Origin: Pseudophaeobacter sp.
GTDB lineage: Bacteria; Pseudomonadota; Alphaproteobacteria; Rhodobacterales; Rhodobacteraceae
Direction: 5' to 3'
Length of the DNA: 64,000 nucleotides
Assembly: GCF_039971195.1 (NCBI RefSeq)
Contig: NZ_JBDWPJ010000034.1
Location: 1,887 to 65,886 of the forward strand
Shown: positions 23,771-27,201 of the stretch, piece by piece
Layout: each line of letters begins with the position of its first letter
Position numbering within the stretch: the stretch's first letter is position 1
The notes under the pieces: model-generated
What the model was told of the DNA's origin: nothing
The model's input: only the letters and a program-made list of their open reading frames with translations
Databases searched by the model: none
Program-made: the position numbers and the translations under genes

Positions 23771-24525
23771 GTCTTTACCGCTCCAAACCGGCGATCTCGG
23801 CTGCCAAACTTGCGACACAGGCGCCCCAGTTCTTCGGCGGTAAAATCAGGCCAAAGCGTATCGATGAATTCATATTCCGCATAGGCTGACTGCCAGAGCA
23901 AGAAGTTTGAAATCCGCGCCTCCCCGCTGGTGCGGATCACCAAATCCGGATCCGGAAGCACATGGGTATCCAAATAGCGCGGCAGAGTTTCTTCATCCAC
24001 ATCCTCAGGACGCAACCGGCCCTCCGCCACATCCTGCGCCAGACGTTTGGTGGCGCGGGCCACTTCGTCCCGCCCACCATAGTTCAACGCAATGGTTAGA
24101 TGGGTGCCATCATTTTGTTCGGTCTCATGCTCCAGCTCATCCATCAGCTGCACAAGCTTGGCATCCAGCCGCAGTCGGTCGCCAATAAATCGGACCCGCA
24201 CATTCTGAGCCGCCAGGGCCTTCATCTCTTTGGAGATGTAGCGCCGAAACAGGCTCATCAGGCCAGAGACTTCGACTTGAGTCCGCTTCCAGTTTTCCGT
24301 GGAAAAAGCAAATATTGTGAGATATTTGACCCCAAATTCAGGACAGGATTCAACCACTTCCCGCACCCTTTGGGCGCCGGCATGATGGCCAAACAGGCGG
24401 GGTCGCCCCCGCGCCTGTGCCCAGCGACCATTGCCATCCATAATGATGGCAACATGGCGGGGACCTGCCTGCGCCTGCCCCTCTGACGCGTCCTTTTCAT
24501 AACATGTATCGGTATCACTGGGCAT
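23767..24525 (-). CDS. uppS: Undecaprenyl diphosphate synthase
   Basis: HVAIIMDGNGRWA, AFSTENWKR, ALNYGGR, IRTSGEARISNFLLWQ. Confidence 0.97.
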   Translation of the reverse strand: MPSDTDTCYEKDASEGQAQAGPRHVAIIMDGNGRWAQARGRPRLFGHHAGAQRVREVVESCPEFGVKYLTIFAFSTENWKRTQVEVSGLMSLFRRYISKEMKALAAQNVRVRFIGDRLRLDAKLVQLMDELEHETEQNDGTHLTIALNYGGRDEVARATKRLAQDVAEGRLRPEDVDEETLPRYLDTHVLPDPDLVIRTSGEARISNFLLWQSAYAEYEFIDTLWPDFTAEELGRLCRKFGSRDRRFGAVKT

Positions 24526-24533
24526 AAAGCGGG

Positions 24534-25097
24534 TCAGACCTGCATGATTTCTGCCTGCTTGTTCTCAAGCGCATCATCAACAGCCTTGATCATCGCATCG
24601 GTCAGATCCTGCACCTCGGATTCCCAGAATTTCTGGTCATCTTCGGACATGCCATCGGCCTTGGCCTTTTTGATCTGGTCCATGCCATCGCGGCGCACAT
24701 TGCGGATCGAGACGCGGCCATGTTCCGCATATTGCCCGGCAACCTTGCCCAGCTCGCGGCGGCGCTCTTCGTTCAGCTCAGGGATCGGCAACATGATAAT
24801 GGTGCCATTGAGCTGAGGGTTGATGCCAAGGCCGGAATTGCGGATGGCCTTTTCAACCGGTCCTACCAAGGCCTTATCCCATACATTGATGGTAACCATG
24901 CGCGGCTCTGGCACATTCACTGTGCCAACCTGGTTGATCGGCGTCATCGAGCCATAGGCCTCGACCATCACCGGTTCCAGCATCGAGCCAGAGGCCCGGC
25001 CGGTGCGCAAAGACGCAAATTCGGTTTTTAGATTCGCCATCGCGCCATCCATGCGGCGCTTCAGATCGTCGGTATCCAGTTCAAAATCGTCAGACAT
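24534..25097 (-). CDS. frr: Ribosome recycling factor
   Basis: [23 protein letters not shown]. Confidence 0.97.
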
Positions 25098-25365
25098 ACT
25101 ACTCTCTCCCCTGACTTGAGGCAGTCTTTGTTCTGCTCATAAGCCATTGGTCCACCAATGTATAGCGATCATGACATGGATTTCAGAGCAGCTTTGCCGA
25201 CCTAGGTACCCCCGGCGCGCCGTTTATGCAAAGCGGTCACAGACAAAATTGCGCGCGACGGCCAGAACCATCACGCGCAGAATTTTGGGGTCCAGGGGGG
25301 ACCTGGGCACCACCGAAATAGAGCAATTCTCCCGGCTTTTACGTCCTGTAAAGGGTGCTGAGGTT

Positions 25366-25399
25366 AGGTTAATCCACTCAAGTGACAGCGGTGTGACAG
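25366..25399 (-). promoter_or_regulatory. Pho-box (PhoB-type) promoter pointing toward frr
   Basis: Minus strand CTGTCAC-ACCG-CTGTCAC (25399-25382), then exactly 10 nt, then -10-like TAACCT (25371-25366). Confidence 0.62.
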
Positions 25400-25445
25400 T
25401 TGGGAAAGCAATTGCGCGCTGTCAGCACGGACCAGGTCGCGCATT

Positions 25446-26192
25446 TCAGCCTTCGACCTTGGTATAGGTGCCTTTACCAGCCAGAATTCCGCGGAACCCA
25501 CCGGGTTCATCCAGTGAGAATACGATGATCGGAAGGTTGTTATCGCGTGCCAGCGCAATGGCCGAGGCATCCATCACCCCAAGACGTTTGGCCAGAACAT
25601 CGTCAAAGCTGACATTGTCATAGCGTTTGGCATCGGCGTGTTTTTCCGGGTCCTTGTCGTAGACACCATCAACCTTGGTGCCCTTGAAGATCACTTCACA
25701 GCCCATTTCATTGGCTCGCAGGGTCGCGGCGGTATCTGTAGTGAAATAGGGGTTACCCGTGCCAGCGGCAAAGATGCAGACCCGCTTTTTCTCCAGGTGG
25801 CGTACCGCACGGCGGCGGATGTAGGGCTCGCAGACCTGATCCATGGGAATCGCCGAGATCACCCGGCAGAACACGCCGAGATCTTCAAGCGCGCTCTGCA
25901 TCGCCAGAGCGTTCATCACGGTCGCCAGCATGCCCATATAATCGGCAGTGGTGCGTTCCATTCCCTGGGCGGCCCCGGACAGGCCACGGAAGATATTGCC
26001 GCCACCAATCACCATGCAGATCTCAACACCCATGTCATGCACGGTTTTGACTTCGCGGGCGATGCGCTGAACGGTGGGCGGATTGAGGCCAAAGCCCTGA
26101 TCCCCCATCAAAGCCTCACCTGAAATTTTTAGCATGACACGGTTATAGGTAGCGTCTGGAACAGTCTCCAGCGTTTCAAGATCAAGGGGCAT
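25446..26192 (-). CDS. pyrH: UMP kinase
   Basis: [43 protein letters not shown]. Confidence 0.97.
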
Positions 26193-26292
26193 GTTGCGCT
26201 CCGGCAGATGAGGGGGTTAGTTTGCGCGGCAAAATGGAGCAAAATGGAACGGGATTCAATGCAGGCTGACCGCTTTCGCAGCTGTTTCTCAT

Positions 26293-27201
26293 TTGCTTTT
26301 GGCACAAACCCTCAAACCCGCGAACGGATCTCATATGCTGTTGCCCGACATTGACCCGGACAAACCCGTTTTGCTGGCCGGTCCTACGGCCTCGGGGAAA
26401 TCCTCTTTGGCGATGGAAATCGCGGAAAAACAAGGGCGTGTGATCGTCAATGCCGATGCCAGTCAGATCTATGACTGTTGGCGTGTGGTGACCGCCCGCC
26501 CTTCGCTAGAGGATGAGCAACAGCTGCCGCACCGCCTTTATGGTCATGTCCGATTTGATGAGCAATATTCCGCAGGCCATTGGCTGCGCGAGGTCAAATC
26601 CCTACTGGCAGGCCCCGAGAGGCTGATAATTGTTGGCGGAACCGGGCTCTACTTCTCCACCCTTACCGAGGGGCTTGCGGAAATCCCCCCCACTCCGGCA
26701 GAGATTCGCTTGCAGGGGGACGCCCTGACGTTGGCCAGCCTCTTGGCGGAATTGGACAGTGAGACCGCCACGCGGATTGATCTGCAGAACCGGGCCCGCG
26801 TGCAGCGCGCCTGGGAGGTTTTGCAAGCAACAGGGCGTTCACTGGCCAATTGGCAGGATGACACCCCCGCGCCGGTTCTGCCACTGCATGCCTGCACCCC
26901 CCTGGTAATGCAAAGCCCCAAGGACTGGCTGGAGCCAAGGATCCGTCAAAGGTTTGATTTGATGCTGCAGCAGGGCGCCCTAGAGGAAGTCGAAGCCATG
27001 CAGAGCCGCTATGACCCGAACCTCCCCTCCTGCAAGGCAATTGGGGTGCCGGAACTCAAGGGTTATACCGACGGTGCGCTGTCGCTGGACGAGGCGCGCG
27101 AGCAGGCCTCTATCTCCACACGCCGCTATGCAAAACGACAACGCAGTTGGTTTCGCTCAAGAATGAAGCAATGGCACTGGCTCGACGGTGGTCACCTCTG
27201 A
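26293..27201 (+). CDS. miaA: tRNA dimethylallyltransferase (start likely 26335)
   Basis: [36 protein letters not shown]. Confidence 0.95.

Follow-up and report, generated by a model that had tools for sequence, protein, structure and literature searches.

Marine roseobacters are often limited by phosphate. The response to this limitation known from roseobacters is made up of proteins, namely Pst, phosphatases, nucleotidases and the lipid remodelling driven by PlcP (PMC4796936). Small RNAs directly under PhoB were scarce in the literature that we searched, and within the incomplete coverage of that search no PhoB-dependent small RNA was found described in roseobacters. EsrL of Escherichia coli is reportedly a small RNA controlled by phosphate and PhoB. 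Its standing is disputed, and binding of PhoB at esrL was not seen by chromatin immunoprecipitation sequencing in K-12 (PMC10294691). PhoS of Bacillus velezensis and B. subtilis is a 3′ untranslated region small RNA induced by phosphate scarcity via PhoP (PMC11522486). A PhoB site was not evident at those phosphate-responsive small RNAs of Sinorhizobium meliloti that were tested (PMC2573895, PMC8829014). Here we describe a locus in a window of Pseudophaeobacter sp. DNA (the whole stretch that was analyzed, 64,000 nucleotides (nt) of NZ_JBDWPJ010000034.1), in which a Pho box stands in the gap between pyrH and frr. We hold it probable, at about 0.62, that this box activates through PhoB a genus-specific small RNA of ~119 nt, which would lie within the pyrH 3′ region and end at its own terminator rather than serve the frr operon. 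All coordinates are positions of the whole stretch, and the features are read on its minus strand:

25382..25399, minus strand: Pho box CTGTCAC-ACCG-CTGTCAC, two 7-bp direct repeats with an 11-bp period, at the -35 place
25367..25372, minus strand: -10 element TTAACC, with YTANNN as consensus of the genus, separated from the box by 9 nt
25359, minus strand: predicted transcription start, an A, 23 nt past the 3′ end of the box, placed by geometry
25241..25359, minus strand: candidate small RNA of ~119 nt with a branched 5′ domain, a C-rich hairpin and a terminator, both ends predicted
25289..25303, minus strand: near-invariant hairpin GGUCCCCCCUGGACC, stem GGUCC/GGACC and loop CCCCU
25250..25279, minus strand: intrinsic terminator from a terminator scan, 13-bp GC-rich stem with a loop of 4

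Like the E. coli pstS and phoA promoters and those of S. meliloti pstS, phoC and phoX, the promoter found here has two CTGTCAY repeats with a 4-bp gap at the -35 place, ~10 bp before a weak -10 element. Unlike at those promoters, the predicted product is a non-coding RNA and not a phosphate-acquisition gene.

The box starts 46 nt past the pyrH stop codon and occupies the -35 place without a good TTGACA, as is characteristic of Pho-box promoters; a scan of 24900..25600 for the sigma-70 consensus found no promoter. The first-pass annotation had read from the sequence the repeat CTGTCAC-N4-CTGTCAC with an 11-bp period, followed after 10 nt by TAACCT. Both parts of this reading are accurate (25399..25382 for the repeat; TTGAGTGGAT and then TAACCT at 25371..25366, minus strand), and once the relatives were aligned, the -10 element was better read as TTAACC, one base earlier. 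The start that it had placed near 25359, with a non-coding leader of about 260 nt, holds up as a prediction, since a transcript from 25359 would run for 262 nt before the frr ATG at 25097. Its comparison with PhoB-activated promoters agrees with each feature that can be judged from sequence, i.e., the repeats, the -35 place, the spacing to the -10 element, the presence of the motif at Pho genes, and the encoded PhoR and PhoB. The Pho search consensus of S. meliloti (Yuan et al. 2006, as quoted in PMC2573895) is CTGTCAT-N4-CTGTCAT. PhoB boxes of S. meliloti that overlap the -35 element lie 22–25 nt upstream of mapped starts (PMC3616915), and the predicted distance of 23 nt between box and start fits this range, which counts in favor of a PhoB promoter.

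Conservation within the genus gave a strong argument for the promoter. In an anchored, ungapped alignment, 12 genomes of the genus shared the box, the 9-nt spacer and the YTANNN -10 element at a common position. The first half-site follows CTGTCAY, with the variants ATGTCAT, ACGTCAT, CTATCAT and CTTTCAT, and the second occurs also as CTGATAC, GTGTTAC, CTGTTAC, GTGTCAC and CTGACAT, with four free bases between the two. The spacer to the -10 element is constantly 9 nt, and the C/T-T-A of that element is conserved in all 12. From the -10 element to A/G-GCAYC there are 7–9 bases in 10 genomes, and ~22 bases to GGCACC in the other two (G314 and G312). Calculated for 9 non-redundant genomes of the genus, the two half-sites carried 1.7 and 1.6 bits of information per position and the -10 element 1.2, whereas the flanks and spacers carried 0.3–0.5. 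As judged from the alignment, this pattern is the footprint of a functional activator-dependent promoter. Conservation of the box upstream of frr across roseobacters, which the first-pass annotation had named as a check, was thus seen in the 12 genomes of the genus and not outside it. A search of the gap at the 80 closest frr loci of named genomes, with at most two mismatches, gave no Pho box except for a single GC-rich match that is doubtful. The distal part of the gap aligned, among these 80 loci, only with Phaeobacter sp. 11ANDIMAR09 (L005; Frr 98% identical) and with one metagenome-assembled genome. L005, the closest relative, has a box with three mismatches, which became clear only once the alignment was anchored.

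Counting motifs was less decisive. When at most two mismatches were allowed, the window held 1 match versus 0.36 expected from shuffles, which is not significant and is what a functionless chance match would give. The perfect form CTGTCAY-N4-CTGTCAY occurs a single time in the whole genome of 4,167,555 bases, where ~0.10 matches over both strands were expected from its base composition (GC 0.587). Since the footprint described above, with its orthologous place and fixed geometry in 12 genomes, is a stronger argument than any such count, we regard a chance origin as extremely improbable and as excluded for practical purposes.

The genome encodes a phoR-pstSCAB-phoU-phoB cluster, including a PAS kinase, on contig C62. 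Its PhoB scored 344.3 bits against the family profile, above the curated cut-off, and carries the recognition helix TVDVHIGRLRK, which we take to be close to its E. coli counterpart. The pstS promoter (C62:8205, in the region C62:8016-8310) contains three phased repeats, TTGTCAT-ACAG-CTGTTAC-ATAG-CCGTCAC. A weight matrix built from the orthologous boxes and pstS was used to scan the genome, and the best independent match was CTGTCAT-TTAG-CTGTTAT (C156:22908-22925), followed after 9 nt by ATAATT. This box stands 44 nt before the start codon of a gene for a secreted cpdB-type 2′,3′-cyclic-nucleotide phosphodiesterase/3′-nucleotidase with a Tat signal (NF006938, 549 bits). Nucleotidases of the cpdB type are typical phosphate-scavenging enzymes, and the gene is likely a member of the Pho regulon of this organism. 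After the box at pyrH, the next-best matches to the motif are those before pstS and the cpdB-type gene, and the motif therefore marks Pho genes here. As far as sequence can tell, the assignment of the box at pyrH to PhoB is well supported.

Other matches of the genome scan were recorded alongside these. At C24:11140-11157, ACGTCAC-AGCG-CTGTTAC is followed after 9 nt by CTAGCG, a geometry equal to that of the predicted small-RNA promoter. This match is found ~80 nt upstream of an HNH-endonuclease-like open reading frame and within a long open frame of the opposite strand. Weaker Pho-box-like repeats occur at C7:5478, 130 nt before a gene for an HPF-like hibernation factor, and at C91:12923, 108 nt before an arsenite-methyltransferase-like gene, both identities being taken from the N-terminal sequence only. 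Lower-scoring matches before hpf, arsM, uvrC, an L,D-transpeptidase-like gene and others were too weak to serve as controls, and plcP, wanted as a further positive control, was not located in the genome.

Downstream of the box, the analysis revealed a structured element whose boundaries coincide with those predicted for the transcript. BLAST similarity to relatives starts at 25358-25362, adjoining the predicted start, and extends to the terminator. The 119-nt stretch folds with a minimum free energy of -48 kcal/mol (z -3.6 versus shuffles). The consensus fold of 11 homologues has 33 pairs in five helices, with 10 pairs changed on both sides. Its helices comprise a closing stem, a pair of inner hairpins, of which one has a conserved GAAUUG loop, the GGUCC/GGACC hairpin and the terminator. 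In the MAFFT alignment, 94.8% of the pairing cells were filled by pairs versus 35–45% in slid controls, and the covariation score was 0.30 versus 0.07–0.11. The predicted fold is supported by this covariation and by the compensatory changes. Of the 11 aligned sequences, 8 carry the C-rich hairpin GGUCCCCCCUGGACC identical to the letter, while that of G306 is shorter by one C and those of G314 and G312 differ. In G309, the hairpin reads GGUCCCCUCGGACC. Its near-invariance suggests a sequence-specific role, e.g., as a pairing seed, and makes it a candidate anti-Shine-Dalgarno region or seed. The terminator folds with -26.3 kcal/mol (z -5.71), is followed by the U tract AAUUUUGUCU (25249..25241), and shows compensatory changes in its stem (U-A/U-G/C-G at one pair, G-C/G-U/A-U at another).

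No reading frame was common to the 11 homologues; starts, frames and stops vary, and insertions and deletions are not multiples of three. A small protein encoded by the 119 nt was ruled out by this absence of a conserved frame. On the plus strand, an antisense open frame of 106 codons (25147-25467) spans the gap and the pyrH 3′ end; lying over both RNA and promoter and unsupported, it is very likely spurious.

The element is confined to the genus. A covariance model of it (R1) matched once, and no more than once, in each of 14 out of 15 genomes of the genus, always between pyrH and frr, and the genome without a match is only 57% complete. Over 250 other genera of the family, R1 gave one marginal match of 26 bits; among the 80 named frr loci, no match beyond L005 and L006 was found. 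A BLAST search with the whole gap across 300 genera showed the frr-proximal leader alone to be common to relatives. An Rfam 15 scan of 24000..27000 returned no family at E ≤ 1. The candidate, a genus-restricted small RNA putatively under the control of a transcription factor and without an Rfam family, is most likely undescribed.

Whether the promoter would serve this RNA or the genes beyond it depends on the gene setting, for which the following features are needed:

25446..26192, minus strand: pyrH (uridine monophosphate kinase), the upstream gene, from the open-reading-frame list and TIGR02075 (pyrH_bact, 325.7 bits, above cut-off)
25400..25445, minus strand: 46-nt stretch from the pyrH stop to the box, no convincing terminator
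25159..25165, minus strand: likely -10 element of frr itself, CTATACA within GATCGCTATACAT, ~68 nt before the ATG
25098..25158, minus strand: conserved frr leader from alignments, including CCAATGGCTTATGAG (25150..25136) and the ribosome-binding site GGGGAGAG
24534..25097, minus strand: frr (ribosome recycling factor), from the open-reading-frame list and TIGR00496 (frr, 186.1 bits, above cut-off)

The gap between pyrH and frr measures 348 nt (25098..25445), and frr is the first gene of frr-uppS-cdsA-dxr-rseP, all on the minus strand like pyrH. The open-reading-frame list and family profiles confirmed the names frr, uppS, cdsA and dxr given in the first-pass annotation, which had left two options for the promoter, namely that it is aimed at frr-uppS-cdsA-dxr or at a hidden small RNA. 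In the first option, the Pho box would be a second, phosphate-regulated promoter of this operon and the 119 nt a leader with an attenuator hairpin, through which starvation would raise or tune ribosome recycling and lipid-carrier synthesis. Promoter and operon are indeed co-oriented with no gene between them, the U tract after the hairpin is short, and there is partial complementarity between the C-rich hairpin and the G-rich ribosome-binding site of frr. However, the 13-bp GC-rich terminator that intervenes is strong and conserved (z -5.7), and frr has a -10 element of its own (CGCTATACA, ~68 nt upstream of the ATG). When one mismatch at most was allowed, 62 of the 80 related loci had the element GCTATACA in the 130 nt preceding frr, with a peak at 67–69 nt, a count that takes in a few look-alikes from the pyrH 3′ end. 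In genera without the box and the RNA (Leisingera, Ruegeria, Epibacterium, Tritonibacter, Salipiger and others), the element occurs 67–70 nt upstream of the frr start codon, which argues that frr has its own conserved promoter or leader. Furthermore, the genus shows no conservation over the 80–230 nt that separate the terminator of the RNA from the promoter of frr, and the G313 version of this stretch shows, when read by eye, further hairpins and a T run resembling additional terminators. The frr start region ranked just at the 27th percentile among the predicted duplex partners of the RNA, which is unremarkable, and none of the relatives from other genera carries a Pho box before this gene. 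We therefore do not favor a promoter aimed at the frr operon and consider it unlikely. The hidden small RNA, in contrast, fits the data, as the conserved unit starts within 1–2 bases of 25359, ends at the conserved terminator and has no conserved frame.

The region next to frr was itself strongly conserved across 25098-25190 (minus strand), with the order GAAATCC..TCATGATCGCTATACAT..CCAATGGCTTATGAG..AAGACYGCCTCAAGTCAGGGGAGAG, in which the CCAATGGCTTATGAG block is invariant.

On the upstream side, the 46-nt stretch between the pyrH stop and the box folds with -11.7 kcal/mol (z -0.10), no better than shuffles, and the same stretch in relatives (17–102 nt) is mostly without a GC hairpin and U run. 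Because the pyrH stop and the box are not separated by any convincing terminator, the one at 25279..25250 probably also ends the pyrH transcripts. The likely layout, as predicted from the sequence, places the small RNA within a 3′ untranslated region and gives it its own promoter and a shared terminator. The same absence of an earlier terminator would be expected if the structured element were a mere 3′ untranslated region of pyrH with its terminator, and the box a site for PhoB or another OmpR-family regulator that is inert or acts on pyrH as a roadblock or read-through repressor. G303, which lacks the promoter and still has a degenerate body and terminator directly after pyrH, speaks for this explanation, as do the many inert PhoB sites of E. 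coli mentioned below. An inert site, however, would not hold its half-sites, a fixed 9 nt and a YTA -10 element across 12 genomes whose spacers drift. A terminator would not need the branched 5′ domain, which shows compensatory changes, or the invariant hairpin rich in C, and conservation begins at the predicted start and not at the pyrH stop. Thus, we find it improbable that the element is a 3′ untranslated region alone.

For the small RNA we propose the following mechanism. Under phosphate limitation, phosphorylated PhoB would bind the two CTGTCAC repeats at the -35 place and recruit RNA polymerase to the weak -10 element TTAACC. Transcription would begin near 25359 and mostly halt at the 13-bp GC-rich hairpin and U tract (25279..25241). 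The pyrH mRNA would probably end at the same terminator, so that the product would be a small RNA inside the pyrH 3′ region with an internal promoter, while frr would be transcribed from a conserved promoter of its own beyond the terminator. The product is predicted to fold into the branched 5′ domain, the GGUCC-CCCCU-GGACC hairpin and the terminator. Base-pairing in trans would be its most likely mode of action, for which the C-rich hairpin is a candidate anti-Shine-Dalgarno seed; the genome contains hfq. In this scheme, we infer that PhoB binds, that phosphate limitation induces the RNA and that the RNA acts in trans, and likewise infer its precise 5′ and 3′ ends and its targets. A broader and doubtful extension would see the locus as a two-input RNA arm of the roseobacter Pho regulon, supplied by the constitutive pyrH mRNA tail and by the PhoB promoter, in which the C-rich hairpin blocks ribosome-binding sites and so trims phosphorus-costly protein synthesis or membrane functions. 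If this were true, the position beside frr-uppS-cdsA would reflect a link of phosphate status to the ribosome and phospholipid economy.

Several observations weigh against the proposed small RNA. The genome encodes at least eight OmpR-family regulators, and one other than PhoB could bind the box. Many PhoB sites of E. coli are reported to be transcriptionally inert (PMC10294691). The U tract is short (AAUUUUGU), which makes read-through into frr possible. Two genomes of the genus deviate from the common form. The metagenome-assembled genome G303 (L131/L006) is without the Pho-box promoter and has a changed C-rich loop, in addition to the degenerate body and terminator noted above; G307 (L130) has a different, shorter body with CCUUCCCC and the same terminator, with half a box only upstream. 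The element is therefore dispensable or fast-evolving. Target scans, which used a rough gene caller of our own (3,786 genes) and no accessibility model, gave 19 8-mers complementary to the C-rich hairpin at start regions versus 26 expected, i.e., no enrichment, and RNAduplex runs of two segments of the RNA against all start regions ranked the partners unspecifically.

The best single partner in these scans was a gene start on contig C94 (minus-strand offset 3859), where the 9 nt GGGGGGACC are exactly complementary to GGUCCCCCC of the hairpin. These 9 nt lie in the ribosome-binding site CCCTGGGGGGGACCACATG of a secreted protein of 360 amino acids with an N-terminus that looks LysM-like by eye; the match is a lone one and a mere lead.

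Within its scope of one genus, the locus offers a clean and testable case, with the best Pho box of the genome, a geometry fixed across the genus, a structured RNA whose hairpin is invariant, and natural variants in which the promoter is lost. As natural variants of the element, G303 and G307 can help to date when the RNA arose or disappeared. The locus also shows how a regulatory RNA may arise at the terminator of a housekeeping gene through a gained binding site for a regulator.

Among known small RNAs, DapZ and MicL of enterobacteria are embedded in 3′ untranslated regions and have their own promoter, a terminator common with the upstream mRNA and a dedicated transcription factor. The RNA described here resembles them in that its predicted promoter lies just past the upstream gene; that the terminator is shared is, in our case, deduced from the lack of an earlier one. 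In design it is similar to PhoS, being a small RNA at a 3′ untranslated region under a (here predicted) control by phosphate scarcity. PhoS, however, belongs to another phylum, depends on the regulator PhoP and has no relation in sequence or structure; it lies in the 3′ region of phoPR, whereas the present RNA follows pyrH, a gene outside the Pho regulon. With EsrL it would share the proposed design of a PhoB-controlled small-RNA gene, although EsrL is gammaproteobacterial and the sequences are unrelated. AbcR1/2 (alpha-r15) and cuckoo/alpha-r14 are alphaproteobacterial small RNAs with C-rich anti-Shine-Dalgarno loops (PMC3712013, PMC4615179). Membership in either family was rejected: the present RNA has one C-rich hairpin (UCCCCCCU) and no CCUCCUCCC as would be needed for cuckoo/alpha-r14, and neither this family nor AbcR (alpha-r15) was among Rfam matches at E ≤ 1 in the scan given above. 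Like the AbcR and cuckoo RNAs, it is of ~100–150 nt and intrinsically terminated, with an exposed C-rich hairpin that is predicted to be able to pair with G-rich ribosome-binding sites. It differs from them in having a single UCCCCCCU hairpin instead of repeated CCUCCUCCC loops, another type of promoter, and a distribution limited to one genus.

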